A DNA stretch of 64,000 nt from Candidatus Omnitrophota bacterium (GTDB lineage: Bacteria; Omnitrophota; Gorgyraeia; Zapsychrales; Fredricksoniimonadaceae), in assembly GCA_903861305.1 (NCBI GenBank), contig CAIOTT010000056.1:5918-69917 (forward strand), in the 5' to 3' direction. This document shows positions 23,455-56,733 of this stretch, piece by piece. A program made the translations under genes and the position numbers. The notes under the pieces are model-generated. The model was not told the DNA's origin. It saw nothing but the letters and a program-made list of their open reading frames with translations, and did no database searches. Numbering within the stretch: the first letter of the stretch is position 1; each line of letters opens with the position of its first letter.

Positions 23455-26400
23455 TTTCCTTCCATGGCCGCTGCTCCGGCGCCGTTGAACAAAGGCAGTC
23501 CCGCCGCCGGACGTATGTTCACGATAACCGGCACCAGGCCGTCGATGTGGATATTGTCCAGGTCCTGCTGGGCTACCGGCAAAGGCACCCCGGCGCCGTC
23601 GCGTTTGATCTGCATGTCGAGATTGGAGGCGGCGAAGTCGATACCGCCTGGCTGAACAACTTTCTCTGCCATGTCAGAAGACCCTGAATTTGATCCAGTT
23701 ACTTTGCGTTTCGATGTTGTTGCGGCCTGATCAGGAAACCGTCTTATATCTTCTATGGGTCGTTCAGATTTAATTAATAGCCAGTCGTCTCCCCTGAATG
23801 ATATCCCATCAATCCCATAAATGTAAGCCACAACATCAATCAAATAAGGTGCCAAATGCCATAAATTATGATCAAATTCATCGTTATCAAAAACTTTAAA
23901 CATCTCATTGCGAATTAAAGATACGGAACTATCAGACACGACATCCCCATCAAATGAAATCTTGACCCAGGAATCTGATTCCTGTAAAAATTTTAACAAT
24001 GCCCTGTTCCCATTATTAACAAAAGTCCAAATGGATCTTCCATTAAAATAAGATTCCGCCTTACCCCACGAAAATCCATCACGACAAATATGCTCGACAT
24101 CTTCGGGCGATTGAGTAACTCGCTTATGATTAACCTCATGGAACAATTCAAGAATTTTTCTTTCTCTACCAGAATAATACGATCCCATCTCCAGGACAAA
24201 CTTTGCCAACTTCTTGCTCTGAATTAATGCCTGCCGCAACGTTTTTTTGGAACCTTTTTTAAACGGCTCATCCAACGTTATAAAAATATATGGCATTTCA
24301 GCGATAGCTTGACCCAACAATCCCGGCATCAGCTTCATACCGACAGAATTGAACAATGTAAAATTGTTATTCTGCGTATCATTCCGCAACCAAACCTCTT
24401 CTCCTCCCGGAGCCACAAAGCGCAAGTTGAACTCAAGCCGCGCGAAGGCTGACGGAGGGGTAAACCTTGCTTCCAGGATATAATTACCATCCCCGTCACG
24501 CTCATCCGTGGCCGTCAATACGAGCGGCAGGTCACTTTCAGGCGCAGACCAGTCACGATAACTGATACCTCCTTCGTCAATATCAACATGGCTGAAACGT
24601 ACAGATCCTTTTATACTCTTAAGATATCTGTCAAGACGCTCACGGGGCATCTGTTTGTCATTCAACGCCATGGCGAACCTGAGGGCGACCTGCCCTTGCT
24701 TGTCGACAACGACTTCGGAGCCATTTGGCTGCTGGATATGCCCTGACCAGATCAACTTTACCGCAGATAAATCACTCGCCACATCCATTGCGGTCTGGCT
24801 TTGATCCGGAACATTCTTTTTCAATTCAGCCACACGATCCTCAATATATTCGGAGAGCGTCATGGACAACACGCGGAAATCAGCATGTTCGTATTGCTTG
24901 CGGATCGGCATCCCCATTTTCAACAGGGCCACGAATGACATTGCGTCCGTCATCGATGCCGCGCCGCGCCCGAAGGGATTGGCCTGGATGAACCACCACT
25001 CATATTCAGCGAGCGCCGCCAGACGAGCATCCCTGGTCAATGACTCATCCATCACGCTATCCCAGCATTCTGTTAAACGCCGCATAATGGCGGGCACATC
25101 CGCGTGCTCTGCATGATAAAGCCTGATCCTTCCATCGTCCTTGACAACTATCATCTGGCGATAGAACTTCCCGGTCTTCCCGATCTCTTGCAAGACATAA
25201 TACCTTACCATGTCAGGAAGGGTCTCTTTGACAAAACCTTCCAGAGCAAGCCGCTTGCGCACCTTATCATATAATTGCCCATACCTGCCGGACGGGCTCA
25301 TGGGCGTATTCGGGACACCCCAGCCCTTGTCTTTAGCGAAACCCAGCAACCGGCTCGTTAACGCATCACGCAAAATGAGCGCGAACTTATACTCATCGAA
25401 ATCCGGGTCCAGCAGCACCACTGACAATCGCGCTTTATACACCAGACCCAATATCGGTAAATGTTTCTTTTCGGAGTCCCTGGCCAGAAAGGCCGCGGCC
25501 GCTGCCATGACTGCGCCGAATTCATCGTTCGAATGGAACTTTGAATCTTCCTCGACGCTGATCGCCGTGCGGATCTTTTCCTGCAAGGGGTCATCTGGAT
25601 CAAAATCGGGCACACGGGACTTATGGAACCGCAACCTCTTATCCCAGGGGCCTTTGGCAGCGTCATCGGAACTATCGAACGTCATCGACCCGTCCGCTTG
25701 ATCGCCGACGGAAGGCCCTTCATGATGCTTTTTGAGGCCCTTAGTTAATTCGGCGGATCGATCCGCCTTGTACTCCGGCAAGGTCATCGATAAGGCGCGA
25801 AAATCAAGGTGTTCAAATCTCGCGCGTAACGGCAAACCCATCTTAGATTGGGCCACCAGCGACATCGCGTCCCCGATCGACGCACCACCGCGCCCGAAAG
25901 GATTCGCCTGGAAAAACCACCACTCGTATTCCGCCAGGGCCGACACGCGCTGGTCCTTATCAAGATCATCCGCCATCATCTTGTCCCACAATTGCTGCAA
26001 ATGGGCCAGGATCGAAGGAATGATGATATCCGGCGCTTTATAGATACGGACCTTTTCGTTATAACGTTCCAATACTTGCCAATAGGACTCCCCGGTCGCT
26101 CCGATCTCCTGCGCGCGCGTATAACGCGTCCCTTCGGGAATAGACTCCATATTAAAGCCTTCCGCCGCAAGCCGCTGGCACAGCATCACATATAATACGG
26201 CGTAGCGCCCCTTGCTCGATATGTCGGAGTACCGAACCCCCCGCTGTTCATCCGGCAACCCCAGCAACCTGGTATTGACAGCGGCCCTCAGTGAATCTTC
26301 AACAGGCCGTTCCGCCAGCACTGCCCTATTCGATGCCGCCAGTAATCTTGCCTGGAATATGGCGCTTAACACCCACATATGCCTTTTTTCGTGCTCCCTG

Positions 26401-37000: not shown

Positions 37001-37271
37001 TCAGTGCCGCAAGAAAATATTTGACCAGACGCGAGGAGACTTCCCTGGCATCTGATGTTAACGACGCCGCGTCCCCTTTGTTAAGGATAAAATCAAAACG
37101 GAACGGATCTTTGGCGTAAACCTTGACCCCGGCAAGGATCGGCGGATGGAACGCGGGGCTCAGCGCCACGAGGCCCACCGGCGGGGGCATGAGCACCTGG
37201 GCATACGAAGGCGGCAGGAACGTATTCACCAGAAACGCCGCCAGAATAATGGAGGATATCCATGAACGCAT
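31029..37271 (-). CDS. Giant secreted protein P4 (2080 aa), paralog 4 of 5: signal peptide, N-cap, 2x(helical + GNAT) modules, HAD domain, 2x methyltransferase-like modules, C-cap
   Basis: Signal peptide MRSWISSIILAAFLVNTFLPPSYAQ. N-cap includes PFRFDFILNKGD and WVNLSPYEKDRIVPEAFG. GNAT-like cores are VAGFALILD...LAIDPRYRADPVKGRGSMGLGSRILERV and IAGFAMVR...VAVDPRYKADPLKGKASAGLGSIMLSRV. HAD motifs are VFDLADTLY...LASNAS...GKPDP. MTase-like cores are VKILFVGVGRGLEAIEA and VKVLFVGVGRGLEAVEA. The C-cap is DGGIDLN...GIAPVIIAVRPLNDLAGFLGAH. Start trimmed from 37412 to the ATG at 37271. Confidence 0.8.
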   Translation of the reverse strand: MRSWISSIILAAFLVNTFLPPSYAQVLMPPPVGLVALSPAFHPPILAGVKVYAKDPFRFDFILNKGDAASLTSDAREVSSRLVKYFLAALTVPAGEMWVNLSPYEKDRIVPEAFGQTEMGRDLLAQDYLLKQLTSSLMYPEQSLGKKFWAEIYKQAREKFGTTDIPVDTFNKVWIVPAKAVVYEKPKVAGNKSSDEAVAYVVEARLKVMLESDYVAMSHQKDMAEPPAPAGDLAEDHAQIEPSPLWGGNGRGSDLAKCIIRQIIIPVLEKEINEGKNFARLRQVYNSLILATWYKKKVMGALNNSPLGFYVGQNKVQGVTIDDPKEAEKIWGRYVEAFQKGAYNFIREEYDPATQETVPRKYFAGGVQIVPDLAMTDHIDAAALTPENSFLVEVHGDGIMPDGDGAQALAWKNFEAKVNSFSHETSDALLKYLLKNAAGYINKEFDRDVLFLFSRGQKPHYWEYPVFDKISSILNEEQKDEFARYLMRTDVDITARICILAKFKTVYCIHASLEEIRNFKDKDEVRHPNSVFLRIFAGRPVEDKHDLEKIRDALPPDEVVHMREVLRQRPFNAIPLAYAGVFFPELQDTAIDPVDTGLTGELLSAPTQFRFKIWDIDRKEDVEDIGRQMHNILLKSFSTEETPSLDAIYAVLNNEGHRVLFVEDGEGHVAGFALILDMNDGSVTLGVLAIDPRYRADPVKGRGSMGLGSRILERVIRDVKTLGYSRIYFQPSDKNNAIGFYRKYIGSSGRKDISLVRTNKYTKDDYAIEWAVPEDVIKERIGYLLADLRPGNTLTTADIARIVNVDSVSRVVEMLKRYYRPDIEKGRICVAPWEEFERRVNAFTYREGDSLLRYLMEDARGYIEDKFRSRQGLFTQDQIPGYWDFTVLDKISSVLNDGQKDQLALYLIKHLDNEPALAYFLTRFNTSYAVHVVLEKIRKAPTDKEAFSRAAFFMNTLAARPARYRSDFERVKASLAPDQLAELQGLMRQRSLLNVPLGYVGVFFPSLSDPELDPDHRFHSRIFDLDNDKDANSVLDQVYRILTVNFYGLELLSKIEVEALLGDPSCRWLLLQDAEGKIAGFAMVRTLEGDSVGLSLVAVDPRYKADPLKGKASAGLGSIMLSRVIHDVRSLGYSGLYYFPSDLNNAQKFYERFVSSERGVSIARSGKHRGFPYVMQWDLSDQTATTTGEAGDHAEGLKEGRADRGSLLDRPVKALVFDLADTLYASDSVKRLKVEAMVRFCLENDKGLVEKDVRAKYIELDSLSGVVKYFGLDMKAFNKAIDDLDITDAGLIPNDELAALLQRLHRSYHLVLASNASDAHVKQVLQKLGLDQVFDRIYTQGSMGVGKPDPKFFSNIAESLGFRPGAVVSIGGSLEKEVNAATSAGLKAIHVQGVEDLMANVVARIEEINAGMKEADPAAVAMAPAERTPYLEEESLDRSFELLDHFYDHQLTKMIVNSIFSTFIPGKKWGRPAPVKILFVGVGRGLEAIEAKRRYGRFVEVYAINKEDGLFYDKQSYLGAHGAGDPVHRGSAEAAFDHVRKNLRITDLDERLPSFETKFDLVVLCFATIPYVKNKVGVLNDMLEQYCKKNGHLLSFLSALIQLRSYFLEDHFSLHELMTERVPQFEGNINDLVEFFSEFKQKRKNVDVGFSFHEASLGWINIQKRGQYLIPLKFIGSRRDVQNEFPMQYSFYSREAAVSESTDGTVDGAETTQATNSRMPGGMGRMLNASETPYKDEKYISRTYRELDNVYGGQLTKLIGAKIFSNFLRARRFDGPPVKVLFVGVGRGLEAVEAQRKFGKFVDVHAINKEPGLFLDEAHFMASFGSFGNAGEERARDAFVHVRKNLKLADLDQELPSLDRKFDLVVMGTSVMPYFQDKVGVLNRILTGYCNDNGYLLSMLTNEIWLDQYASGHQTDPLLWKVAAIKNMKKVGEYFKSLARQNKNVQVSLYPLGEMKIAWVRIKKDRKYLIPLKLQEYGQPDVPDSIVADGQKGLAYFYSVYVPDSMGGNSLDHPLNRAAVDGGIDLNPVDRVMAVGAMDGGGFFHFDPAALEKYRDAAGIAPVIIAVRPLNDLAGFLGAH
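31260..33000 (-). repeat. In-frame tandem duplication inside P4 (methyltransferase-like module, two copies, period ~900 nt)
   Basis: TPYLEEESLDRSFELLDHFYDHQLTKMIVNSIF...VKILFVGVGRG...FDLVVLCFATIPYV is matched by TPYKDEKYISRTYRELDNVYGGQLTKLIGAKIF...VKVLFVGVGRG...FDLVVMGTSVMPYF. Confidence 0.7.
33700..36060 (-). repeat. In-frame tandem duplication inside P4 (helical region + GNAT, two copies, period ~1250 nt)
   Basis: Copy 1 starts ALAWKNFEAKVNSFSHETSDALLKYLLKNAAGYINKEF (~36060). Copy 2 starts VAPWEEFERRVNAFTYREGDSLLRYLMEDARGYIEDKF (~34800). The GNAT cores lie at ~35030-35300 and ~33790-34070. Confidence 0.7.
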
Positions 37272-37279
37272 CAAATTCC

Positions 37280-37301
37280 CTCTATAAAATAATTTATAGA
37301 G
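37280..37301. promoter_or_regulatory. Perfect 9 bp inverted repeat overlapping the P4 ribosome-binding region
   Basis: ctctataaa-ataa-tttatagag. On the minus strand its 3' arm runs into GAGGGAATTTG-ATG (P4 start at 37271). It could be an operator or an RBS-sequestering hairpin. Confidence 0.35.
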
Positions 37302-37338
37302 TAAGTATTTACTATAAAGATGAATAAAACAAGGTTGG

Positions 37339-38682
37339 CTAAAACTGGGTGCGGTACTTGAGGAAAACGCGGTCGTCCGGGATCTGTCGGGACGCTGTGG
37401 AGGGCTCGGCACCCTGCGCGGGAACGATCTCTTTTTGCGCCCCCAACGTTACCTTGCCCGTCACCCGGTATTCACCTTCCACGGTCTGGGTCAAAGCACG
37501 CTGGTGGCGCTCATCCGGCGTGTGCGCCACGGCCACGCCATAACCGACATCCAGCTTGTCAGAAAGGTCCCTGTTGAGCGTGACCCCCTGTTTGGTCTGG
37601 TCGAGCTTGTAGGATATGCCGGAAAATCCGAAGAACCCGGCCAGGCGCGTGCCTGCGCCGCCGAAGAAAAAGTAATCGATAAAATCACCGGCCAGCTCGG
37701 GCGTCATCTTGCGGCCTCCGGTAGAAACCCCGGCCAGGTCCCATTTTTTCCCTGTCGTCAGCATCAGCAACAGCTGCTCTTCAGGCAAAGGCGGATCGGA
37801 TACCAGACGAACATCTGGTTTCCAGCGTGTGCCTTTGGCGGCAATATCGATGTGGACGCGTGCCACTGTCGCTGTCGCGTGGACATCGATCTCAGGATTC
37901 GCCGGGTCACCGGAGAAAGTCAACCGGCTTTCCCCCAGATGCAGCAGGGTGCGCGGCGCCTGCAGAAACCCGCCGTGAATGTTGAGGGTCCCGTACGTGC
38001 CCCACAACCCGCCCGTGCGCATAAAATACAAGGCACAGCTGACAGGCGCATCTCGCAGCAGGAACCCGCCCTTGGGAATATGCCCGACCACGAACACACC
38101 CGCAACCTGCGGCTTTGCCAGCGTCCCGGTCAGTTGCAATTCAAGGCTTTTCAATTCTCCTTTTAATGGCGGGGGGTTTTTGAAATGCCTGATGATCTGG
38201 CGCAGGGCCGCAAGATCCAGGCTTTGGGAAAAGATGTCCGCGTGATAACGACCCTGCCTCAACCAGCCGTTCACAACTACAGGGTCCGCTGCGGGATCAA
38301 GGACACGGGCATTGTCGAGCGTAACATCAAGGCCATCGAACGCCGCCCGCGCCAGGCTCACATCCATTTCCTGCACGCGCACCATGCTGCCCTGCGGGAG
38401 GATCGAAGGGACATTGACCTGAAGGTTGAATATCCGCACGCCGCGTCCCAACGACCCCTCAATGCGCTCGTACGCCACCTGATCCGGGCCAAAAAAATAT
38501 TTCGTCGCCGCGCGCAATGACATCCGGGCGCCCTGCGGCGTCACGAGGAAGAACGCGGCTGATCCGGCAAGGAGAACAAAAATGGAGAGCAGGACGATCA
38601 AAAAGATCCCGATGATCCTGTCCAAGGAGAACCTGGCCACGTCAGCTCCTGATCTTTCCCAGAAGCCGCAAAAGGCCATCAA
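37339..38682 (-). CDS. Short TamB-like protein (N-terminal membrane anchor + DUF490/TamB C-terminal domain)
   Basis: 447 aa with anchor IIGIFLIVLLSIFVLLAGSAAFFLV. DUF490-like stretch: RLTFSGDPANPEIDVHATATVARVHIDIAAKGTRWKPDVRLVSDPPLPEEQLLLMLTTGKKW. Ends in ...FLKYRTQF. The exact start is uncertain, since it overlaps the upstream gene by ~41 nt. Confidence 0.6.
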   Translation of the reverse strand: MMAFCGFWERSGADVARFSLDRIIGIFLIVLLSIFVLLAGSAAFFLVTPQGARMSLRAATKYFFGPDQVAYERIEGSLGRGVRIFNLQVNVPSILPQGSMVRVQEMDVSLARAAFDGLDVTLDNARVLDPAADPVVVNGWLRQGRYHADIFSQSLDLAALRQIIRHFKNPPPLKGELKSLELQLTGTLAKPQVAGVFVVGHIPKGGFLLRDAPVSCALYFMRTGGLWGTYGTLNIHGGFLQAPRTLLHLGESRLTFSGDPANPEIDVHATATVARVHIDIAAKGTRWKPDVRLVSDPPLPEEQLLLMLTTGKKWDLAGVSTGGRKMTPELAGDFIDYFFFGGAGTRLAGFFGFSGISYKLDQTKQGVTLNRDLSDKLDVGYGVAVAHTPDERHQRALTQTVEGEYRVTGKVTLGAQKEIVPAQGAEPSTASRQIPDDRVFLKYRTQF

Positions 38683-46361: not shown

Positions 46362-48023
46362 TTACCCTTTTTTAATGTCCGCCAGGATGATGTTCGCGCG
46401 GGCGATCGCGTCTTTCATATTGGCAAAAACATTGTCCTCGCCGATCAGCTCATAAAGATTCGCCTTGACGATCTCATTCAGCGGCTGAACGTGCAGCCCC
46501 GTGATGATCAACGCGGTGTTCTCCTTGCGGCTTTTCTCGTAAAAGCTCCTCAAAGCATGCATTCCCGTCGAATCAATGATCGGCACATCGCGGAAACGGA
46601 GGATACGCACTTTCGGGGCACCGCCCACCTGCCGGTCGATCTCGTCAAACCGGCTGGCCGCGCCGAAGAACAGCGGGCCATTGATCTCATAGATCTCGAC
46701 ATCCTTGGGGATAACAAAATTCGACAACGGAAGGTCCTCGCCCTTCTCATCCGCGTCGTATTCCCTGGCCACCAGCTTGATGTTGGTCGCGTCCGCCATC
46801 CGCTTCATAAAGATGAACGTCGCCAGGACAACACCGACCTCGATCGCCGCGTTCAGATCAACGAATACCGTCAGGCCAAAGGTCGTTACAAGGACCAAAG
46901 CCCCGCCGCGCGACCACTTCAATAGCTCCACGAACGAACGCCATTCGCTCATGTGATAGGCAACAACAACAAGGATACCCGCCAGGCAAGCCAGCGGCAC
47001 GTACTTGATCAAGCCGCCCAGGAACAACATGATCAAAAGCACCGTGATGGCATGGATCATGCCGGCCACGGGCGTGCGCCCGCCATTCTTGATGTTCGTC
47101 ACGGTCCGCGCGATCGCTCCGGTCGCGGGGATGCCGCCGAAAAGGGCTGAGGCGATATTCGCCGCGCCCTGCGCGATAAGCTCGGTGTTGGAACGGTGCC
47201 GCGCGCCGATCATGCCGTCAGCCACGATGGCGGAAAGGAGCGATTCAATGGCGCCCAGCAAGGCGATCGTGACCGCGGGCTGGAACAGCTCGCGCAGCAA
47301 CGCAAGATTGATCAACGGAAAATGCGGCATGGGCAAAACGCGGGGCAAATCCCCGAAGCGGCTGCCGACCGTTTCAACCTGCAAATGGCACAGGGCCGTG
47401 ACGGCTGTCACAACAATAAGGGCGATGAGCGCCCCCGGCACCCGCTTGGATATCTTCGGCGTTATCACGATAATAAGGACGGTCAAAAGGCCCGTCATCA
47501 TCGCGTCGTAATTCACAGTCCCTATGTTAGCGATGAAAAGATGCCATTTCTCGATGAACTCGGCCGGGACCTTGCCGATCGAAAGGCCCAGAAAATCCTT
47601 CACCTGCGAAGAAAATATGATCACCGCGATCCCGCTGGTGAACCCGACGATCACGGAATGCGGGATAAATTTGACAGCGGTCCCGAGCCTCGCGAAACCC
47701 ATGATCAACAGAAGGACGCCGCCCATGAGGGTCGCGAGGATAAGCCCGTCCACGCCATGTTTCTGGACAATGCCGTAAACAATGACCACGAAAGCGCCCG
47801 TGGGCCCGCCGATCTGCACACGGCTGCCGCCGAGCGCCGAAATGATGAACCCCGCGACAATGGCCGTAAAAAGCCCCTTGTCCGGCGAAACACCCGAAGC
47901 GATGGCAAAGGCAACGGCCAGAGGGATCGCCACAACACCCACAATGATGCCCGCGATGGCATCAGAAAAGAACTTCTCTTTGGAATAATCTTTCAGGCAC
48001 GTTACAAGTTTCGGAGCGAACAT
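46362..48023 (-). CDS. SulP-family anion transporter with C-terminal STAS domain
   Basis: 553 aa. Contains FSDAIAGIIVGVVAIPLAVAFAIASGVSP, a polytopic core, and a STAS-like tail (VRILRFRDVPIIDSTGMHAL). Confidence 0.88.
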   Translation of the reverse strand: MFAPKLVTCLKDYSKEKFFSDAIAGIIVGVVAIPLAVAFAIASGVSPDKGLFTAIVAGFIISALGGSRVQIGGPTGAFVVIVYGIVQKHGVDGLILATLMGGVLLLIMGFARLGTAVKFIPHSVIVGFTSGIAVIIFSSQVKDFLGLSIGKVPAEFIEKWHLFIANIGTVNYDAMMTGLLTVLIIVITPKISKRVPGALIALIVVTAVTALCHLQVETVGSRFGDLPRVLPMPHFPLINLALLRELFQPAVTIALLGAIESLLSAIVADGMIGARHRSNTELIAQGAANIASALFGGIPATGAIARTVTNIKNGGRTPVAGMIHAITVLLIMLFLGGLIKYVPLACLAGILVVVAYHMSEWRSFVELLKWSRGGALVLVTTFGLTVFVDLNAAIEVGVVLATFIFMKRMADATNIKLVAREYDADEKGEDLPLSNFVIPKDVEIYEINGPLFFGAASRFDEIDRQVGGAPKVRILRFRDVPIIDSTGMHALRSFYEKSRKENTALIITGLHVQPLNEIVKANLYELIGEDNVFANMKDAIARANIILADIKKG

Positions 48024-48078
48024 AACATCCTTTTCCGGGTTTATCAGGTGGTTTTTTTGGGGATGGGATACGCGTTCA

Positions 48079-48106
48079 ATTATACGCTCTATTGAACGGC
48101 TGTAAA
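48079..48106 (-). promoter_or_regulatory. Putative sigma70-type promoter of the sulP / HTH-EIIA / Ehr-like operon
   Basis: The minus strand reads TTTACA-N16-TATAAT (plus-strand tgtaaa at 48101-48106, attata at 48079-48084), about 55 nt upstream of the sulP ATG. Confidence 0.45.
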
Positions 48107-48142
48107 CAGATACCCGTCAAAAATATGCCGGTAATTCCAGGC

Positions 48143-51100
48143 CTAACGGCCGGCAACCCGGGCTTCTGGCGGGATCATCCCAAGGAACTGGGAAAGGCTT
48201 TCCAGAGGATGGACATCCGTGACGACCGGAGCAAACCCGGAGGCGTCCTGCAAGCGTTGCAGCTGCGCGGGATCGAGGTTGAACCGGACAGAGTCCCCGC
48301 TTTCCTGGACCCGCAGGTCCAGCGTGCCGGCGTTAAGATCGATACCGCCGTGGGCGGCGTCAGCGGACGCATCGGCGTGCGTGCCAGGCGACAGGCCTGC
48401 GCCCTTGCCATCAAGATCGAACGGATTGAACTGGGTGATCTCGTCCGGACCCACAAATATAAGCCCATTGTCAATGAACATGGCCGCCGAGATACCTCCC
48501 GTAGATAATACTTTCTCTCCATTCTTGTTCAGCAACATGTTGCCAATATTCCCAGCGATAAAGGCTGTACTCCCTTGCGGCGACCACGCCACGCGCAACA
48601 GTTTTCCGACCCCGGACACCGTATCGCTCACACGACGGCCGTTCTGGTCCAGCAAGAAAGCGCTCGTTTCAAGCCCCACAAGGATCCTGTCGCCCTGCGG
48701 TGACCACGCCATGCGGGACATGGCGCCTGTCAGCACATCGCCCATACGCTCCCCGTTTTTATTCACTAACACGGCGCCTGACCTTCCCAGGACGAAGATA
48801 CTGTCATCCCGCGGCGACCACGCGATATCCATAACGATCCCTATCCCGGAGACATTAGCACCCTGACGCTCTCCGTTCTTATTGAACAAGACACCACCCC
48901 TGCTGCCCCTGACAAAAAGCCTGTCACCCTGCGGTGACCAGCGCGCCCCCGTTATTTGCCCGACCCTGATGGCCTTCTTATAAGAGATCCCATCCATATC
49001 CAGTAGAAGTGTGCCGAAAGGCCCACGCACAAAGACCCTGTCACCCGCCGGTGACCACACGGCATCAAACAGGCCCCCAAGCCTGGCCGTCTCCCCATGC
49101 ACCGTACCTTGCCTGTCTATCAAAAAAACACCGGACCCGGCATTAACAACCGCCATTTCACCATCAGGCGACCAATTCACTTTATTTATCACCGAAGATG
49201 TTGATTTTCCGAAACTCTGCGAATGTCCTTCCTTATCCAGCAACACGTTGCCGCGCCTCCGTTGAACAAGGACCATGTCACCCTGCGGGGACCATGCCGC
49301 GCCTGTCATGTCCTCTAACGCGACATCCCCCAGGTGATCTCCCTTCGTATCGAACAACACCCCCCCTTTACTCCCTATGAGAAAGAATCTGTCACCTTGC
49401 GGTGACCACGCCACATCCGAGCCCTGCCCAACAGCGGATGTTGCAACACGGCTACGCTGGCCATTCCTGTCCAATAGCAAAGAATCCGCGCTCCCATTGA
49501 TAAAAAGCCTGTCGCCTTGCGGTGACCACGCCGTCTTATACAGATCTCCCGAAAGGGCCTCACCCTGAAGCTCCCCATCTTTGTTCAACAAGAGGGCCCC
49601 TAAGTTCCCTCTGAGATATACCCTGTCGCCCTGCGGCGACCACAGCGCGAACGACAATATCCCGACCTCGGATATCACCTGTTTTACATAGCGCCCCTTA
49701 TCGTCCAGGAACATCGTACCTGTCTTGCCGATAACAATAACCCTCTCGCCCTGCGGCGACCATTCGACCCGCATGACTTTCCCAATCCCGAACACCGGAT
49801 CACCCAGGCGCCGACCATCCTTATCGAACATCATGCCGCCATTCTCACCACCGACAAAAACCAAGTCGTTACCGGGCGACCACACTTCGATCGACTTCTT
49901 CCCAATCCCTGACAGGTCCCATGCCTTGCGCGCATAAACTTCCGGCGTAGCATCACGCAAGATCTTCTCATCAACGATCCGGTCGCGGATCAATCCCAGC
50001 GCTGTTTCCCGTTGCAGGGCATCCCCCCACATCATCACGACCCCCAAGACACGGGCCGCATCAATCGCGTTCCCGGAACGGACAGCCTCCTGGACCCATG
50101 CCGCAAGCCCAAGCCCGCTCTTTAAGAACAGCTCCACCGCCGCAGCATGCGGATCTGACGTGATCTCTTCCCGCAATCCGGCATCCGGTATCACCGGCCC
50201 GAACGCCTGTTTCTTTTCAAGCATCCATAAAGCCTTCCAGAGGTCCACCCGGTTCCCCGCGAACAGGCGGGCCAGGTTCCTCATTTGCGCTGAAAATTTC
50301 CCTTCTGTCACGATCTCGCCCCTGCGCACCGCAAGCCCGGCCGTAAGAACATTCCACTCCTGGGTCGCCGCCCCGTGCACCATCGCCATTGCGGTCACGA
50401 TCAGGGCTTTCATTTCACGCCCGTACGCATCCCCATCTGCGATCGCCCCTGCCCGCGGCGGTTCAAGCGTGTTCAACGCCAGCGTATCATTAGAAGGCTC
50501 ATAATAAAGCGGCGTCCTGTTCTTCTCGCTGCCGGTAATCCCGCCGAGCCCGAACTGGCCGAATGTCAGCGTAGGGCGACCGCCCGCGAGAAAGCTCATC
50601 AACTTCTCCAGGGCCGTGAAAATAGCTCCGGCCCCCGGAACAACACGCGAAATATCCTTCTCTCCCCCCACATGCACATGCATCCCCTGGCTGACCTTGA
50701 GCAAGTCCTTACGCCCCGGCTTCTTGTTCAACGCGTTCGCAACACTATTGATCTCCGTGATGATCTGTGTCAATTCTTTCAGGAACACACCCCACCCTTC
50801 TTCGGTATTAGGCATCCCCCTTTTGGTCCTGACCTCAACATTATTCGTATCCCAGCTCATATCCCAGCGGGTTGATGAAATAGAACGCAGCTTTCTTTTC
50901 AAACGTTCGAAAAGAAGATACGTGGCCTCGTCCTGGCCAAGGTTCAGTTCAAGCTCAATGCCGAAGGTCATCTCTTTAGGAAGCCCCGTCACCGACCAGA
51001 TCGCGGGATCGGTCCTCTTCACGATCTGTAAATATTCAAAGAACTCATCCGATGTCAGCTTCCCGAGATGGTCCGTGATCCACAGGAATACCGGGTTATC

Positions 51101-54100
51101 CTTCTGCTCGCTCAACGAGGATGAACGCGAAGCTTTCAGCCACGCGGCGCGCTCCTGATCCGTCAACCCTTGCGGGTCATACGCCAGGACCACGCGTGCC
51201 GTCTGGTCCACAACATCAGTCCATTTCTGGTCAACGGCCACGTCCATCAGGAGTCCCGCCGATGACGTACTCAGCTCGGCTGGTTTCTCTTCCAACAGCC
51301 GAAGCTTCTGCAACCGGCGCAGCAGCGCCAGGCACCCGTACTGCCCCAACGCACGCACGTCGTCCACATGCTGCAGCCCGTTGAATGACCGGACCGCGGC
51401 CTCAAGATCCTCTTTGGCTTTTTGTTCCGGTCTGGGGGCGGACACCGACTCCGCCGGAACGATCTTTGTCGGGACGATCAATCCGGAATTCCCATGGGAT
51501 TCCCAACCCGACGGCACCTTCCGCATCACAATGTCACTGTCCGAAATAACCAGCTTGGCCGCAGCTACCTTCAGGAAAGATGGCTTGTGCGGCTCGCTGC
51601 CGTCACCCGCCTGCGCCTGGTCCGCGACGATCTTGTCTATATCAAAAGGTTCCCAATATTCAACCCTGCCTGAGCCAACGACCTCCAGTCCATTTCCAAC
51701 GAATTTTACATCGCCATCGCCTCCTAATAACAAGACTTTATTCCCCTTCTTGTCCAACAACGCACCCCCGGATCCTTTTTGAACAAAAACTTGATCGCCC
51801 TGCGGCGACCACTCGACTTTCAATATTTCCCCAATGCCAGATACGGCCGCATCCATACGACCACCTTCCTTGTCGAGCATCACTCCGCCGAATTTTCCTC
51901 CGACAAAAACCTGATCACCCTGCGGCGACCACGCCACGGCCCATACTCTCCCAATACCAGACTGCATCTCACCCTTGCGAGCACCCTCCTTGTCCAGCAT
52001 CATGCCGCCAAGATCTCCTAGAACATAAACACGATCTCCCTGCGGCGACCACGCCACGGCCCTTATTGTTCCAATGCCAGAGACGGGCTCACCCTTACGA
52101 TCACCCTCCTTGCCCAGCATCACTCCGCCGGAAAGGCTTCGAACAAAGATACGATCACCCGGCGGTGACCACGCCACGGCCAATATTACCCCGATACCAG
52201 ATGGTGTCACACCCCTGCGATCACCCTCCTTGTCCAGCATCACACCGCTGGAATATCCTCGAACAAAAACACGATCGCCCTGCGGCGACCATACAGCATC
52301 CAATATTGTCCCAATACCAGATACGGTTTCACCCGTACGACCACCTTCCTTGTCCAGCATCACACCGCTGGAATATGCTCCAACAAAAACCCGATCTCCC
52401 TGCGGCGACCACGTCACAGCTCTTATTCCCCCCATGTCAGCTAATATTTCGCCCTTGCGACCACCTTCTTTATCCAACGTCACTCCCCCAGATTCTCCGC
52501 GAACAAAAACCCGATCTCCCTGCGGCGACCACACCACTTCGAATATTCTCCCAATACCAGATACTATCCTTCTTTTTTGACCACCCTCCTTGTCCAAGAT
52601 CATAACGCCAAGATCATTTTGAAGAATAACACGATCGCCCTGTGGCGACCATGATGGCGTATGCCATATGTCCCCAACACCAGATATTTGCTCACCCTTC
52701 TGACCACCTTCCTTATCCAGTAACACACTGCCGGAATCTCCTTGAACAAGAACCAGATCGCCCTGCGGCGACCACACCACTTCCTGTATTTTCCAATTAC
52801 CAGATACTATTTCGCCCTTACGGCCACCCTTCTTGTCCAGCATCACACCGCCAGATTCGCCTTGAACAAAAACCCGATCTCCCTGCGGCGACCGCACCAT
52901 AAAATATATTTCACCGATCCCGGATACATCCCCTGCGATCCGCGTGTAGACCCCCATCATGCCCTGACGCAACGCCGCCTCAGCGATGGTCTTGCTACGG
53001 ATCAAACCCAAAGCTGTTTCTCTTTCATGGATATCCCCCCACATTATCACGGCCGCCAGGACACGCGCCGCGTCAATATCATTCCCGGAACGCACAGCCT
53101 CCTTGATCCAAGCCTCAAGCCCCAACCCGCTCTTGATGAACATCTCCACAGCCGCGGCATGCTCGTTTGATGTATTTTCTTCCTGCAATCCCGCATCAGG
53201 CACCACCGGCCCGAATGCCTGTTTCTTGTCAAGCACCCATAATGACTTCCACAAGTCCACCCGGTCCCCCTCGAACAACCGCGCCAGATTCCTCATTTGC
53301 GCTGCAAACCTACCTTCCGTCACAATATCGCCCCCGCGCACCGGAAGCCCGGCCCGAAGAACATTCCACTCCTGTGTCGCCGCGCCATGCACCAGCGCCA
53401 TCGCGGTCATGATCAACGCCTTCATTTCGCGTCCATACGCGTCGGCATCAAGGATGGATCCCACCCGGGGCGGTTCCAGCGTATTGAGCGCCAGCGTGTC
53501 ATGGATAGGGTCATAATAGATCGGTGTAGTGTTCTTCGCGCCACCCACGACCCCTCCAAGTCCAAACTGACCAAACGTAAGCGTCGGCCGCCCTCCCGCC
53601 AGGCCGCTCATCAGCTTCTCGAGGTTCGTAAACATGATCCCTGCGCCCGCGACAGCACGAAAAACATCCTTTTCTCCCCCCACATGCACATGCATCCCCT
53701 GGCTGATCTTGAACAACTCCGCACGGCCTGCTTCCTTGTTCCACTCACTTACGACCCAGTTCATTTCACTCACAATGGCCGTCAGTTCTTTCAGGAACAC
53801 GCCCCACCCTTCTTCGGTATTAGGCATGCCGCCTTTGGTCCTGATCTCTATATTATTGCCATCGTGACCCAGTTCCCAGCGAGCTGAATCCCATAGGGCA
53901 GGAAGACTGGCGCGCAACAGTTCGGAAAGCATATCTGTTCTTTTATTCTGATCGTCCTCTTGAGATACCCGCACTTCCAGTTCAATGCCGAAGGTCATCT
54001 CTTTAGGAAGCCCCGTCACCGACCAGATCGCGGGATCGGTCCTCTTCACGATCTGCAAATAATCAAAGAACTCATCCGATGTCAGCTTCCCGAGATGGTC

Positions 54101-55669
54101 CGTGATCCACAGGAATACCGGGTTATCCTTCTGCTCGCTCAACGAGTATGAACGCGAAGCTTTCAGCCACGCGGCGCGCTCCTGATCCGTCAACCCTTGC
54201 GGGTCATACGCCAGGACCACGCGCGCCGTCTGGTCCACAACATCAGTCCATTTCTGGTCAACGGCCACGTCCATCAGGAGTCCGGCCGATGACGCACTCA
54301 GCTCGGCTGGATTCTCTTCCAGCAGTCGCAGTTCCTGCAGCCGCCGCAGCAGCGCCAGGCACCCGCCCTGCCCCAACGCACGCACGTCGTCCACATGCTG
54401 CAGCCCGTTGAATGACCGGACCGCGGCCTCAAGGTCCGCTTTAGCTTTTTGTTCCGGACTTTTGGCTGACGCTGATCCCGCTGGAACGATCGTTGTCGGA
54501 ACGATCAATCCGGAATCCCCATGGGATCCCCAACCCGAAGGCGTCTTAGGTAAAACCAAGTTCTTTCCAGGAACAACAAGATCGACCCTTCCAAAGATCA
54601 GCCTTCCATTATCAGGCGGCACAATATCGGTCTTGGAAAATACCGGCCCCATGGCCGCATCGACGAAAACAACACCACCCGAAAAATATTTCCGCGGGAC
54701 TGTTTCGCCGGCCAAAGGGTCTTTCTCATCCTTGATATAGTTATAAACACCCTTCTTGAAAGCTTCGACATACTGCGCCCATATCTTTTGCGCTTCCTTC
54801 GTGTCCTCAATGTTGACCCCCTCCACTTTATTCCGGTCGACATACACGCGCGCAAGGATCGAATCCTTGATCTTTTTCTTGTACCAGGCCGCCAGGATAA
54901 AAGACTGGTACACCTGCCGGAGCAAAATAAAATTACGCCCCTCATTCACTTCCTTCTCGAGTTCAGGGACCACGATCTCCCGCAGGACCTCCCTGGCCAG
55001 TTCCTGGGTCGCGGAAAACGGGACTTGCGCCTCCCCCTTGATGACCGAATTCTCCAGCGCCTTATAATCGCTTTCCAGCATGACCTTCAACCGGCTCTCC
55101 ACGACAAACGCCCGGTCCTTATGCTCGAAAACAACAGCCTTCGCCGGAACGATCCAAACCTTGTTGAACGTATCGACCGGCATATCTGTGGTCCCGTATT
55201 TCTCGTAGATCGAACGGTATATCTTCGCCCAAAACTTCTTTCCTGTATCACCTTCCGGATAGATCGCGGAAGCCGTGATCTGCTTGAGCAGATAATCCTG
55301 CGCCAGAAGGTCACGCCCCATCTGGGTTTCACCGAACGCGCCGGGAACGATACGGTCTTTTTCATAAGGGGATAAATTGACCCACAGGTCTTTCTCGGGG
55401 ACGGTCAAGGAGGCAAGGAAATATTTGGCAAGGCGGTTGAGGTCACTTTTTAGCTGCTGATCCGTTGCCCCGGCATCGCCTTTATCAAGGATGAAATCAA
55501 AACGGAACGGATCATCGGGATAGACCCTGACGCCTTTAAGGGCCGGCGCCATGAAGGACTGGCTCAACGGGACCATCTGGCCCGGCACCGGCAATACCAG
55601 GGCCTGGGCATGGACAAACCCGGTCATAAAAAAACAGGTCAAAGTTATTAACGCGATAACTTGCTTCAT
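48143..55669 (-). CDS. Giant secreted protein P5 (2508 aa), paralog 5 of 5: signal peptide, N-cap, 2x(helical + amidoligase-like + WSPQGD beta-propeller) units, C-cap
   Basis: Signal peptide MKQVIALITLTCFFMTGFVHAQA. N-cap includes PFRFDFILDKGD, WVNLSPYEKDRIVPGAFG and EKEVNEG. Two units carry FGIELE...GMHVHVGGEKD, followed by 10 and 12 WSPQGD-type blades. The C-cap is HGGIDLNAGTLDLRV...GFAPVVTDVHPLESLSQFLG. Start trimmed from 55699 to the ATG at 55669. Confidence 0.8.
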   Translation of the reverse strand: MKQVIALITLTCFFMTGFVHAQALVLPVPGQMVPLSQSFMAPALKGVRVYPDDPFRFDFILDKGDAGATDQQLKSDLNRLAKYFLASLTVPEKDLWVNLSPYEKDRIVPGAFGETQMGRDLLAQDYLLKQITASAIYPEGDTGKKFWAKIYRSIYEKYGTTDMPVDTFNKVWIVPAKAVVFEHKDRAFVVESRLKVMLESDYKALENSVIKGEAQVPFSATQELAREVLREIVVPELEKEVNEGRNFILLRQVYQSFILAAWYKKKIKDSILARVYVDRNKVEGVNIEDTKEAQKIWAQYVEAFKKGVYNYIKDEKDPLAGETVPRKYFSGGVVFVDAAMGPVFSKTDIVPPDNGRLIFGRVDLVVPGKNLVLPKTPSGWGSHGDSGLIVPTTIVPAGSASAKSPEQKAKADLEAAVRSFNGLQHVDDVRALGQGGCLALLRRLQELRLLEENPAELSASSAGLLMDVAVDQKWTDVVDQTARVVLAYDPQGLTDQERAAWLKASRSYSLSEQKDNPVFLWITDHLGKLTSDEFFDYLQIVKRTDPAIWSVTGLPKEMTFGIELEVRVSQEDDQNKRTDMLSELLRASLPALWDSARWELGHDGNNIEIRTKGGMPNTEEGWGVFLKELTAIVSEMNWVVSEWNKEAGRAELFKISQGMHVHVGGEKDVFRAVAGAGIMFTNLEKLMSGLAGGRPTLTFGQFGLGGVVGGAKNTTPIYYDPIHDTLALNTLEPPRVGSILDADAYGREMKALIMTAMALVHGAATQEWNVLRAGLPVRGGDIVTEGRFAAQMRNLARLFEGDRVDLWKSLWVLDKKQAFGPVVPDAGLQEENTSNEHAAAVEMFIKSGLGLEAWIKEAVRSGNDIDAARVLAAVIMWGDIHERETALGLIRSKTIAEAALRQGMMGVYTRIAGDVSGIGEIYFMVRSPQGDRVFVQGESGGVMLDKKGGRKGEIVSGNWKIQEVVWSPQGDLVLVQGDSGSVLLDKEGGQKGEQISGVGDIWHTPSWSPQGDRVILQNDLGVMILDKEGGQKRRIVSGIGRIFEVVWSPQGDRVFVRGESGGVTLDKEGGRKGEILADMGGIRAVTWSPQGDRVFVGAYSSGVMLDKEGGRTGETVSGIGTILDAVWSPQGDRVFVRGYSSGVMLDKEGDRRGVTPSGIGVILAVAWSPPGDRIFVRSLSGGVMLGKEGDRKGEPVSGIGTIRAVAWSPQGDRVYVLGDLGGMMLDKEGARKGEMQSGIGRVWAVAWSPQGDQVFVGGKFGGVMLDKEGGRMDAAVSGIGEILKVEWSPQGDQVFVQKGSGGALLDKKGNKVLLLGGDGDVKFVGNGLEVVGSGRVEYWEPFDIDKIVADQAQAGDGSEPHKPSFLKVAAAKLVISDSDIVMRKVPSGWESHGNSGLIVPTKIVPAESVSAPRPEQKAKEDLEAAVRSFNGLQHVDDVRALGQYGCLALLRRLQKLRLLEEKPAELSTSSAGLLMDVAVDQKWTDVVDQTARVVLAYDPQGLTDQERAAWLKASRSSSLSEQKDNPVFLWITDHLGKLTSDEFFEYLQIVKRTDPAIWSVTGLPKEMTFGIELELNLGQDEATYLLFERLKRKLRSISSTRWDMSWDTNNVEVRTKRGMPNTEEGWGVFLKELTQIITEINSVANALNKKPGRKDLLKVSQGMHVHVGGEKDISRVVPGAGAIFTALEKLMSFLAGGRPTLTFGQFGLGGITGSEKNRTPLYYEPSNDTLALNTLEPPRAGAIADGDAYGREMKALIVTAMAMVHGAATQEWNVLTAGLAVRRGEIVTEGKFSAQMRNLARLFAGNRVDLWKALWMLEKKQAFGPVIPDAGLREEITSDPHAAAVELFLKSGLGLAAWVQEAVRSGNAIDAARVLGVVMMWGDALQRETALGLIRDRIVDEKILRDATPEVYARKAWDLSGIGKKSIEVWSPGNDLVFVGGENGGMMFDKDGRRLGDPVFGIGKVMRVEWSPQGERVIVIGKTGTMFLDDKGRYVKQVISEVGILSFALWSPQGDRVYLRGNLGALLLNKDGELQGEALSGDLYKTAWSPQGDRLFINGSADSLLLDRNGQRSRVATSAVGQGSDVAWSPQGDRFFLIGSKGGVLFDTKGDHLGDVALEDMTGAAWSPQGDMVLVQRRRGNVLLDKEGHSQSFGKSTSSVINKVNWSPDGEMAVVNAGSGVFLIDRQGTVHGETARLGGLFDAVWSPAGDRVFVRGPFGTLLLDMDGISYKKAIRVGQITGARWSPQGDRLFVRGSRGGVLFNKNGERQGANVSGIGIVMDIAWSPRDDSIFVLGRSGAVLVNKNGERMGDVLTGAMSRMAWSPQGDRILVGLETSAFLLDQNGRRVSDTVSGVGKLLRVAWSPQGSTAFIAGNIGNMLLNKNGEKVLSTGGISAAMFIDNGLIFVGPDEITQFNPFDLDGKGAGLSPGTHADASADAAHGGIDLNAGTLDLRVQESGDSVRFNLDPAQLQRLQDASGFAPVVTDVHPLESLSQFLGMIPPEARVAGR
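48500..49915 (-). repeat. Coding tandem repeat, ~120 nt period, 12 diverged copies (second beta-propeller of P5)
   Basis: Twelve W-S-P-x-G-D/E blades: WSPGND, WSPQGE, WSPQGD x4, WSPDGE, WSPAGD, WSPQGD, WSPRDD, WSPQGD, WSPQGS. They resemble TolB/PD40-type repeats. Confidence 0.75.
50955..51530 (-). repeat. Near-identical intragenic repeat, copy B (pairs with 53982-54557, offset 3027 nt)
   Basis: Direct by-eye comparison shows only scattered substitutions over ~575 nt. For example, 50955-51290 differs from 53982-54317 at only a handful of positions. Confidence 0.85.
51725..52925 (-). repeat. Coding tandem repeat, exact 120 nt period, 10 copies (first beta-propeller of P5)
   Basis: The plus-strand motif (g/t)atc(g/t/a)ccc(t/g)g(c/t)gg(c/t)gacc recurs at ~51793, 51913, 52033, 52153, 52273, 52393, 52513, 52633, 52753 and 52873. 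It encodes WSPQGDRVFV...GGVMLDKEGGRKGE..SGIG blades of 40 aa. Confidence 0.9.
53982..54557 (-). repeat. Near-identical intragenic repeat, copy A (pairs with 50955-51530)
   Basis: See copy B. Alternative-frame track ORFs 54148-54411 and 51121-51384 translate almost identically, which reflects the DNA identity. Confidence 0.85.
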
Positions 55670-55815
55670 CCCCGCCCTTTTGTTAAACGGCCTGACCACC
55701 AGAACAGGCCATAATAAGTATATAATATTAAAAAGGTAAATATGGGGATACGGAAGGCATTCGGGAAAACGTTTTCCCGATCACATGACGCGCGGGGGTT
55801 GGTAATGTCCTGGGA

Positions 55816-56733
55816 CTATTTCGGCTCGGGATGGACCGTGACGTCGGCATCAGGGTAAATATCCTGGATGGCTTTTTCGACGTCTTCGGTCAGGCGATGG
55901 GCCTCTTGCAGGGAGATGCGGCCATCGAGCAGGACATGCAGTTCCACAAAAAGCTGCGGCCCGGAGGAACGGACGCGCACATAATGGCAATTGAGCACAC
56001 CGGGGACCGTTTCCGCGGTGGCGATCACTTTCTCTTCCAGCCCTTCAGGCGCCCCGTCAAGCAGGGCATTCACCGTGCGGCTGCCGAGCTTCCAGCTGAT
56101 CTGGATGACAATGAGACCAACGACAAGCGCGGCAACGGCGTCCGCGTAATGGAGCCACGCCACCGCGGGGATCATATTGCCCAGCACCACGCACCCCAGC
56201 CCGAGGATAACGACCGCCGAGCTCCAGATATCGGTCGAAAAATGGAGCGCGTCGGCCTCAAGGGCCTGGCTGTTATATTTCTTCGCGGCCTTGAACAGCA
56301 TACGCGAACGTGACACGTCAACAATGATGGACACAGCCATAACAGCGAACGACCAGACCGTGACCTCCACATCCGTCCTTCCGGAAATAATGCGATGGAT
56401 CGCCTCATAGCCGATCCACGCACATGTCACAAGCAGGAGCGCTGTTTCAAACAACGCCGAAAGGTTCTCGACCTTGCCGTGGCCGTAACGGTGTTCGCGG
56501 TCCGCGGGCTTGGCGGAAGCGCGCACAGCCAGCAGCGTGACCACCGCGGCCACCAGGTCAAAGCCCGAATGGGCCGCTTCGGCAAGGATGCCAAGGCTTC
56601 CCGTTCCAAAACCCACCACGACCTTCATGATAACAAGGGCCATCGCCGCAAACACCGAGTTTGCAGCCGCGCTCTCTTTTTTCTTGCCATGACCCATGTC
56701 ATGATCGGTAGAGTTCTTCAAAGATTCCCGCAC
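55816..56733 (-). CDS. Cation diffusion facilitator (CDF) family metal efflux transporter
   Basis: 305 aa. Six TM helices with HSGFDLVAA and HFSTDIWSS metal-site motifs, plus a C-terminal cytoplasmic domain. The start may be the internal ATG at 56697. Confidence 0.85.
   Translation of the reverse strand: MRESLKNSTDHDMGHGKKKESAAANSVFAAMALVIMKVVVGFGTGSLGILAEAAHSGFDLVAAVVTLLAVRASAKPADREHRYGHGKVENLSALFETALLLVTCAWIGYEAIHRIISGRTDVEVTVWSFAVMAVSIIVDVSRSRMLFKAAKKYNSQALEADALHFSTDIWSSAVVILGLGCVVLGNMIPAVAWLHYADAVAALVVGLIVIQISWKLGSRTVNALLDGAPEGLEEKVIATAETVPGVLNCHYVRVRSSGPQLFVELHVLLDGRISLQEAHRLTEDVEKAIQDIYPDADVTVHPEPK

Follow-up and report, generated by a model that had tools for sequence, protein, structure and literature searches.

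Gene conversion between duplicates is known in bacteria from the tufA/tufB genes and the rRNA operons. The gene conversion and concerted evolution of duplicated bacterial sequences have been reviewed (Santoyo & Romero 2005, FEMS Microbiol Rev 29:169, as listed in PMC9205934), and gene conversion can obscure the duplication history of PKS/NRPS assembly lines (PMC9205934). Beta-propellers amplify from single blades (Pereira & Lupas 2022, as cited in bioRxiv 10.1101/2023.11.21.568195). Here we describe P5, a gene of an uncultivated Omnitrophota bacterium in which two diverged units of a single open reading frame share a patch of near-identity. The patch is, with high probability, the product of real but ordinary gene conversion, a mechanism of a known kind, and the protein that carries it is a more unusual object than the patch itself.

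P5 lies in the window, i.e., the whole stretch of 64,000 nucleotides that was analyzed, and codes for a large secreted protein with a signal peptide. Translation likely starts at the ATG at 55669 (M11), with which a signal peptide of Sec type (MKQVIALITLTCFFMTGFVHAQA) begins; in other assemblies the start varies with the gene caller (2518 aa, 2494 aa, or M11). The protein contains two units that are in frame with each other and about 1009 codons long, in which a helical domain, a ligase-like domain and a propeller follow each other in this order (Table 1). The patch codes for the helical domain as far as the FGIELE motif. The two ligase-like domains are 68% identical at the amino acid level.

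Table 1. Position of P5, its domains and the sequence tracts compared in this study (coordinates of the window)
Feature	Position	Strand	Remarks
P5 coding sequence	48143..55699	minus	2518-aa ORF from GTG
N-terminal cap domain	54590..55669	minus	about aa 11-370; Omnitrophota-wide
Unit A	51530..54556	minus	aa 382-1390; 1009 codons, 3027 nt; 10-repeat propeller
Patch copy A	53982..54557	minus	inner 452 nt = 53982-54433
Copy-A tract, window vs L002	54224..54367	minus	13 differing sites; L002 has the copy-B base at all
Ligase-like domain A	53090..54004	minus	about aa 566-870; predicted glutamine-synthetase / YbdK / PafA-Dop-like fold
Propeller A	51680..52924	minus	10 repeats of 40-41 aa, WSPQGD motif
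Unit B	48410..51529	minus	aa 1391-2430; 12-repeat propeller
Patch copy B	50955..51530	minus	inner 452 nt = 50955-51406
Copy-B tract, window vs L002	51029..51120	minus	3 differing sites; L002 has the copy-A base at all
Ligase-like domain B	50078..50977	minus	about aa 1575-1874
Propeller B	48455..49912	minus	12 repeats of 38-40 aa
C-terminal cap	48146..48409	minus	GGIDLN...FNLDPAQLQRLQDASGFAPVV...FLG; also found in the N-cap family

The in-frame intragenic duplication of about 1000 codons described in the initial annotation is real. When the N-terminal part of the protein was compared with the C-terminal part using blastp, aa 374-1355 aligned with aa 1383-2430 at 56.7% identity (E = 0); the two unit copies lie in direct orientation on the same replicon, at an offset of 3027 nt. 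Identity is not uniform along the unit. In an ungapped comparison at this offset, segments of 100 nt are 93-99% identical across 50943-51440 and elsewhere show background values of about 25-35%, because indels change the offset, which is 3012 within the enzyme domain; in alignment, the units are 50-85% identical outside the patch. An exact count over the two patch copies yielded 42 differences in 576 nt (92.7% identity), and 16 differences in 452 nt (96.5% identity) in the inner patch. The longest perfect runs measure 84, 76, 74, 66 and 59 nt, compared with a maximum of 34 nt elsewhere in the unit alignment. The near-identity reported earlier thus stands, and the accompanying statement that about 100 nt are free of differences was slightly too high, since the longest run is 84 nt. 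The reported decay of identity toward the 5' side of the gene (i.e., toward higher plus-strand coordinates) is gradual and was reproduced in the segment-wise comparison. At the other end the drop is sharp, at 50945-50955 / 53972-53982, directly past the FGIELE codons.

The same unevenness is found at synonymous sites. Within the patch, the proportion of differing four-fold degenerate sites rises stepwise from 1/37 to 5/39 and 6/21 (2.7%, 13% and 29%); outside it, the proportion is 46/107 for the enzyme domain and 80/125 for the propellers (43-64%). Values of dS (Nei-Gojobori) are 0-0.07 in the patch core and 0.2-0.36 in its shoulder, whereas the remainder of the unit ranges from 0.5 up to saturation; in the core dN as well as dS is near zero. 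The maximum chi-square on four-fold degenerate sites was 53.5, whereas 300 permutations reached at most 20.6, which puts the heterogeneity well outside what chance would give. A combination of low dS and low dN marks gene conversion or homogenization and not purifying selection.

Three other explanations of the patch were weighed. That purifying selection on the protein or the nucleotides (an overlapping gene, or an embedded element that is regulatory or acts as RNA) keeps the copies near-identical, and not recombination, is very improbable. Remote homologues do retain the helical domain within the module, and the two units could depend on an identical interaction surface, but the enzyme domain, which is strongly constrained (dN/dS around 0.1-0.2), nevertheless differs at the 46 of 107 four-fold sites given above, against 1 of 37 in the core. 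Protein-level selection cannot account for the patch because the four-fold-site differences are low within it and rise stepwise, and the helical domain is not unusually constrained, as its identity in the remote homologues is only 22-28%. At the nucleotide level, no Rfam match at E <= 0.1 was found within 47500-56500, so that a structured RNA was rejected as the cause of the conservation, and no antisense ORF is common to both patch copies. The idea that the patch of the window is an assembly artefact (a collapsed or cross-polished repeat), raised in the initial annotation itself, has next to no probability. Repeats of 0.5 kb do get mis-handled in metagenome assemblies, and the case of assembly L002 (see below) indicates that the locus may be prone to this; the two copies in the window, however, keep 42 private differences, and both copies with these differences were recovered in four independent assemblies, which is why the patch is not a collapsed repeat. 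In a MEGAHIT k=141 assembly from another analysis, copy B (L001) and copy A (L003) were placed on separate contigs with unique flanks, both 99.99% identical to the window and with the same private differences. No exact run common to the copies exceeds 84 nt, and a k=141 graph thus has no shared node for them; the contig break in this assembly falls in the blade repeats at 52865-52892, outside the patch. The same protein is encoded in further assemblies: it is identical in ERZ1426852 and an NCBI contig, and S1875F is the sole difference in ERZ1426828. The third explanation, a single recent copy-paste of about 0.6 kb followed by heterogeneous mutation or selection that produced the gradient, is improbable, although one event is no less simple an account of the sharp gene-3' boundary than several would be. 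It is hard to reconcile with the about ten-fold gap in four-fold-site divergence between core (2.7%) and shoulder (29%) within 0.5 kb, and such a replacement would mechanistically still be gene conversion.

We therefore regard it as highly probable that an old tandem in-frame duplication was followed by non-reciprocal recombination between the diverged units over the helical domain. The cargo, consisting of the helical domain, the ligase-like domain of putative glutamine synthetase (GS) fold and the beta-propeller, would have undergone an old in-frame tandem duplication, after which the units accumulated about 0.6 substitutions per four-fold site. Only then would the direct repeats have recombined by homology, so that the helical-domain sequence of one unit was copied onto the other non-reciprocally; the route we infer is gene conversion within the chromosome or between sister chromatids, which presumably depends on RecA. 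The three-step gradient is probably best fitted by several tracts that are nested and differ in age, as far as two paralogues allow a judgement of how many older tracts there were and which way they ran. All of these tracts would stop at one shared gene-3' boundary, where a hyperdivergent stretch that lies just past the FGIELE strand and carries a 15-nt indel may block the extension of heteroduplex; alternatively, selection may purge tracts that would homogenize the diverged enzyme domains. The core was last homogenized before the sampled strains diverged, with a difference of 1.2% between the copies and of about 0.02% between strains. The patch belongs to the module and is not an inserted element; in the remote homologues P0121-P0124 the helical domain also precedes the ligase domain. 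All five assemblies have two units, and variants with one or three units were not found among them; deletion or expansion of a whole unit is mechanistically plausible.

The only strain-level evidence on whether conversion is still going on comes from L002 (sample SAMEA6872860), the fifth assembly. The initial annotation had proposed recent or ongoing conversion, of which conversion is upheld by the dS mosaic and 'ongoing' is not, as L002 fits an assembler artefact equally well. In L002 the two copies are 100% identical over 452 nt. Compared with the window, it has 19 differences in 17.2 kb. Of these, 16 fall in 0.9 kb of patch and each of the 16 agrees with the paralogous copy; the remaining three are spread over about 16 kb. 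The pattern is bidirectional (three sites B<-A, 13 sites A<-B), and the homogenization reaches exactly as far as the copies share perfect runs of 59 nt or more. The SNPs of L002 outside the patch (checked at 48091 and 53642) have bases that differ from the paralogue, and a paralogue match beyond the patch was rejected. The pattern is equally compatible with recent conversion and with an artefact of the assembler; if real, it is direct evidence of conversion, but it cannot be counted as firm evidence because a two-copy repeat whose bubble collapses in a de Bruijn graph (bulge collapse) would give the same pattern.

Conversion on a population timescale, in which the L002 strain was freshly converted after the split and lost the 16 remaining differences of the 452-nt core, is possible, with a chance somewhat short of even. 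In its favor, 16 of the 19 strain differences are concentrated in the 0.9 kb of patch, each making copies A and B alike in L002, and L002 is a distinct haplotype at 48091 and 53642, outside the patch and without a paralogue match. The patch of the window type occurs on both alleles of the SNP at 50076, which makes the state of L002 the derived one and import from a diverged strain a less parsimonious source of the copy-A tract of the window; such an import was rejected. Ongoing conversion, however, requires two or more tracts that run in opposite directions, or mismatch repair that was patchy, in a lineage that has only two to three point mutations in 17 kb; the homogenized interval is exactly the graph-connected part of the repeat, and the state is seen in one scaffold-type assembly only, whereas the four others keep the differences. 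Tentatively, and with a doubt that outweighs our confidence by a clear measure, L002 may be real and bidirectional mosaic conversion may outpace point mutation (16 converted sites vs 3 substitutions in 17 kb), leaving the helical domains identical and the enzyme domains diverged. The locus would then be either a hotspot at which recombination meets a hard barrier where the domains join, or one under selection for identical docking domains in a secreted ligase with twin modules, and would allow a direct comparison of conversion and mutation rates in environmental populations.

The propellers have a history of their own. Their blade numbers, given earlier as 10 and 12, were confirmed, as WSPQGD repeats of 38-41 aa in both propellers. 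That the propellers differ is likewise correct, but simple divergence after the duplication does not describe them, as propeller A was re-amplified or homogenized internally: its repeats, with a period of 120 nt, are 76% identical to each other at the nucleotide level, whereas those of propeller B are 56% identical among themselves and 57% identical to the blades of propeller A. Matches to Pfam models were obtained for Beta-prop_WDR19_1st (58.6 bits, cut-off 27), eIF2A (43.8, cut-off 20.5), ANAPC4_WD40 (40.5, cut-off 22.9) and WD40 (31.7, cut-off 27). By these above-threshold model matches, the repeats are assigned to a predicted beta-propeller of WD40/PD40-like type.

The ligase-like domain was called 'amidoligase-like' in the initial annotation, a label that holds at the level of the fold and fails against Pfam. 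An AF2 model of domain A had a pLDDT of 73 and a pTM of 0.72, and in a Foldseek search of the PDB the best 26 matches were all carboxylate-amine ligases (YbdK, Dop, PafA, GS and GCL), with E-values from 1.4e-5 to 3e-2 and TM-scores of only 0.35-0.45. This model supports, with moderate confidence, a GS-like catalytic fold; a model of the helical plus the enzyme domain, built from the two window sequences only, was unusable (pLDDT 47). Conserved features are an E-x-E on the first strand, an E on a later strand, an H-x-H (GMHVHVG) and a further E. In an alignment of 10 sequences, E14, E16, E59, N68, H111, H113 and E135 are invariant or nearly so, and all are kept in both units of P5. As putative metal- or ATP-binding residues, they would map to the catalytic positions of GS, a correspondence that is inferred and not superposed. 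With regard to sequence, no Pfam model matched the P5 enzyme domain at threshold (Amidoligase_2, PF12224, reached E 0.12 in two of the 10 family members), and neither NCBIfam and PADLOC nor the PDB, searched with phmmer and with a profile, gave a significant match; a sequence-level class was rejected for this reason.

The module is very rare. An exhaustive HMMER search of 1.84 billion representative proteins yielded eight remote homologues, scoring at most 117 bits. A word-index protein search with unit A gave no match, and a scan of genome contigs and metagenome contigs with the two-unit alignment detected no relative, so that orthologues in other species were not found by any of these three approaches. 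The 10-sequence family alignment is diverged too far to yield search patterns. The ends of the protein, by comparison, are common. A search with the N-cap, a domain of about 340 aa after the signal peptide, gave 3,697 matches (best E 3e-141, 67% identity) that cover only the N-terminal third of P5, and four paralogues with 45-52% identity lie within the window. No Pfam or NCBIfam model matched this domain, and no description of the family was found in the literature searched. The C-terminal GGIDL...FLG domain (about 60 aa) also occurs in two other ORFs of the window, and its motif stands at the end of 85 of the 120 best N-cap homologues. P5 belongs to a very large, unannotated Omnitrophota family built of N-cap, cargo and C-cap, in which the cargo is interchangeable.

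P5 provides a clean, well-controlled case of domain-restricted conversion in a modular bacterial gene, from a phylum without a cultured model, and its twin module has a ligase-like core of predicted GS fold with eight detectable relatives among the proteins searched. There is a caution for practice as well: one and the same stretch of 0.5 kb comes out differently from different assembly pipelines, and strain-level 'variation' in such genes therefore needs to be checked against reads. Compared with the carboxylate-amine ligase superfamily (GS, YbdK/GCS2, PafA/Dop and Amidoligase_2), the P5 domain is alike in predicted fold and in conserved E and H positions, but it matches no curated model above threshold and has an N-terminal helical domain of its own, and a secreted protein is an odd place for an ATP-dependent ligase. 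As in amplification from single blades, the blades of propeller A are closer to each other than to those of propeller B; in P5, however, this is a second, separate repeat process, distinct from both the 3-kb duplication and the patch. Like other duplicates that undergo conversion in bacteria, the units of P5 are direct repeats in one replicon with a tract of a few hundred nucleotides at near-zero dS, bounded by heterology. Unlike those, they are two modules of one ORF of which only one sub-domain was homogenized, in an uncultivated phylum. P5 is not an assembly-line enzyme, having two modules only and no carrier, condensation or KS domains, but it shares with the PKS/NRPS megasynthases the tandem duplication of a multi-domain module within a large gene and the resulting mosaic of identity, through which some domains look young and others old.

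P5 is a large minus-strand gene in which two tandem units, A and B, each with a helical domain, a ligase-like enzyme domain and a propeller, form the cargo between two terminal domains (N-cap and C-cap) common to an unnamed Omnitrophota protein family. M11 is the probable true start and opens a typical Sec signal peptide (MKQVIALITLTCFFMTGFVHAQA). When the first part of the protein was compared with the second by blastp, residues 374-1355 aligned with residues 1383-2430 at 56.7% identity, and the offset of 3027 nt given in the initial annotation equals the length of unit A (see table). In the enzyme domain the register shifts from 3027 to 3012 because of indels.

Features of P5 and related ORFs, in window coordinates (+ strand), with divergence between units A and B
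Feature	Position	Strand	Residues of P5	Properties
P5 ORF (with N-cap)	48143-55699	minus		2518 codons, GTG start
Unit A		minus	382-1390	1009 codons (3027 nt)
Patch, copy A	53982-54557	minus
Patch, copy B	50955-51530	minus
Post-FGIELE stretch, unit A	53873-53981	minus	577-612
Post-FGIELE stretch, unit B	50861-50954	minus	1586-1616
Propeller A	51680-52924	minus		10 blades
Propeller B	48455-49912	minus		12 blades
N-cap ORF	11027-16549	plus
N-cap ORF	23451-27617	minus
N-cap ORF	27593-30940	minus
N-cap ORF	31029-37412	minus
dS segment			465-560	dS 0-0.07, dN 0.011
dS segment			385-465	dS 0.20-0.36
Enzyme domain				dS 0.4 to above 1
Propellers				dS saturated
Four-fold sites, core				1/37 differing
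Four-fold sites, middle				5/39 differing
Four-fold sites, shoulder				6/21 differing
Four-fold sites, first half of enzyme domain				28/56 differing
Four-fold sites, second half of enzyme domain				18/51 differing
Four-fold sites, propellers				80/125 differing

In an ungapped comparison at offset 3027, identity was 93-99% per 100-nt window between ~50943-51440 and 53970-54470 and at background elsewhere. The patch of ~575 nt first proposed as nearly identical was confirmed, with 42 differences in 576 nt (92.7% identity); over 50955-51406 versus 53982-54433 there are 16 differences in 452 nt (96.5%). The copies share perfect runs of 84, 76, 74, 66 and 59 nt, whereas outside the patch the longest identical run of the unit alignment, located at the GMHVHVGGEKD motif, measures 34 nt. 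The gene-3' boundary is abrupt and lies exactly behind the FGIELE codons, where a hyperdivergent segment begins in which the copies differ by 15 nt in length. Toward the gene-5' end identity is lost gradually; the decay described earlier is thus correct in gene orientation and runs toward higher coordinates on the + strand.

Synonymous divergence was determined along a codon alignment of the units (Nei-Gojobori, 40-codon windows). The best-segment chi-square on four-fold degenerate sites was 53.5, whereas none of 300 permutations exceeded 20.6, which rules out uniform identity along the duplication. The attribution of this unevenness to recent gene conversion is supported by the low core dS and by one differing four-fold site in 37 in the core (the gene-3' part of the patch) versus 46 of 107 in the enzyme domain. 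Within the enzyme domain, divergence is greatest in the stretch just behind FGIELE, which has ~50% amino acid identity between units, a length difference of 5 codons and a dN/dS of ~0.45-0.58 versus 0.1-0.2 in the rest of the domain; it is variable among remote homologues too. Judged from these sequence patterns, it may be a specificity region keeping both ligase-like domains distinct.

Other assemblies of the same species were recovered by searching contigs for the genes flanking P5. In ERZ27313313 (MEGAHIT, k141) the gene is split over two contigs, copy B on L001 and copy A on L003, each with unique flanks on both sides, 99.99% identity to the window and all private differences kept; a graph with k=141 could not merge the copies, because their shared exact runs are all ≤84 nt. 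The exact window protein also occurs in ERZ1426852 and in a 102.6 kb NCBI contig, and that of ERZ1426828 carries the single change S1875F. The patch as a collapsed-repeat artefact of the window assembly is thereby ruled out. L001 and L003 break at 52865-52892, where they overlap by 28 nt, because the 29-nt string located there, AACAAAAACCCGATCTCCCTGCGGCGACC, is common to several propeller blades, and not because of the patch; short-read assemblies of P5 are fragmented by its propeller repeats and not by the 0.5 kb of near-identity. All five assemblies carry two units, and variants with one or three were not found among them. A G/A polymorphism at 50076 (S1875F, ligase-like domain B) segregates among the assemblies, with G in the window and ERZ1426852 and A in ERZ27313313, ERZ1426828 and L002; this SNP is common to L001, L002 and P0131.

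Over 17,228 nt, 19 positions separate the window from L002, a 114-kb scaffold of ERZ18640406 (BUCK21-1 scaffold_36). Sixteen of them are inside the patch: three in copy B (51029, 51035, 51120) and 13 in copy A (54224-54367). L002 has the other copy's base at each of the 16, so that its two copies are 100% identical over 452 nt. The remaining three are ordinary substitutions, without a match to the paralogue at the two sites compared (53642 and 50076). Since the window-type patch is found with both alleles of 50076, the L002 state is derived. Fresh conversion would leave such a pattern; this reading, under which conversion would be ongoing, has a fair chance of being true while falling somewhat short of probable. 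The pattern also fits a de Bruijn assembler that collapsed bulges and then resolved the repeat by read pairs: the changes run in both directions, no difference is left where shared runs of at least 59 nt connect the copies, and the shoulder (gene-5') differences are all intact. In L003 (k141_853126) a 1-nt insertion of C at 54366-54368, turning CCC into CCCC, shifts the reading frame of P5, which is called as 470 + 473 aa in that assembly; the insertion coincides with the edge of the 13-site tract separating L002 from the window. It may reflect a misassembly where haplotypes join, or a genuine variant that pseudogenises the gene.

Relatives of the P5 cargo are rare: when 1.84 billion representative proteins were searched exhaustively with a profile, 8 were recovered (best E 7.6e-29), among them P0121, a remote homologue with one unit and an N-cap. 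In four of the eight the helical domain stands before the enzyme domain, and the patch is therefore integral to the module. Modelled with AlphaFold from a 10-sequence alignment, the enzyme domain reached pLDDT 73 and pTM 0.72. The 26 best Foldseek PDB matches of the model were all carboxylate-amine ligases (TM 0.35-0.45), led by YbdK (1tt4, 1r8g; E ~1e-5) and followed by Dop/PafA, glutamine synthetases and plant GCL; both units retain the conserved E-x-E, E, H-x-H and E positions. No sequence model was significant for this domain, Amidoligase_2 reaching E 0.12 in two of the 10 alignment members. The label 'amidoligase-like' thus holds for the fold and not for family membership.

Both propellers score above threshold against WD40-type models, and they differ in blade number as noted before. 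The blades of propeller A have a 120-nt period and a mean nucleotide identity to each other of 76% (maximum 90%), those of propeller B 56%; A and B blades share a mean of 57% without positional correspondence. Simple divergence does not describe this difference: the higher identity among A blades points to recent re-amplification or blade homogenisation of propeller A, later than the unit duplication and independent of the 3-kb duplication.

Homologues of the N-cap (~340 aa) number more than 3,600; where a source is named, it is almost always Candidatus Omnitrophota or Omnitrophica, and the cargo attached is highly varied, including methyltransferase, kinase, GNAT, TPR/HEAT, radical SAM and HAD domains. 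The N-cap also occurs in four further large ORFs of the window, with 45-52% amino acid identity among the five. The C-cap (~60 aa, GGIDL...FLG; full pattern GGIDL...FN.DPA...LQNAPGF.PVI...FLG) ends P5, two other window ORFs and 85 of the 120 best N-cap matches. No Pfam or NCBIfam model matches either cap. From their sequences, the cap-cargo-cap proteins appear to form a secreted family that spans the phylum. Two preprints on large Omnitrophota proteins (10.1101/2023.11.21.568195; 10.64898/2026.06.07.730766) mention neither this module nor gene conversion.

The best-supported account of the mosaic is duplication followed by non-reciprocal recombination. An old in-frame tandem duplication of the unit (enzyme-domain four-fold divergence 43%, ~0.64 substitutions per site after correction) would have been followed by non-reciprocal homologous recombination between the direct repeats across the helical domain. 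Given the three levels of synonymous divergence, nested tracts of different ages are argued for, which would share an end at the heterology behind FGIELE. The copies differ by 1.2% in the core, compared with ~0.02% between sampled strains, and the last certain homogenisation is therefore older than the strain split. A unit could plausibly be lost or gained in frame by way of these repeats, whose perfectly identical stretches in the window measure 59-84 nt.

The mechanism is already known in bacteria, and the protein is the more novel part, moderately so. Gene conversion between duplicated bacterial sequences is well documented (Santoyo & Romero 2005, in the reference list of PMC9205934). Homogenisation of duplicated modules has also been noted in assembly-line synthases (PMC9205934). 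P5 resembles these known cases and adds a further example, in a modular, orphan-like Omnitrophota protein.
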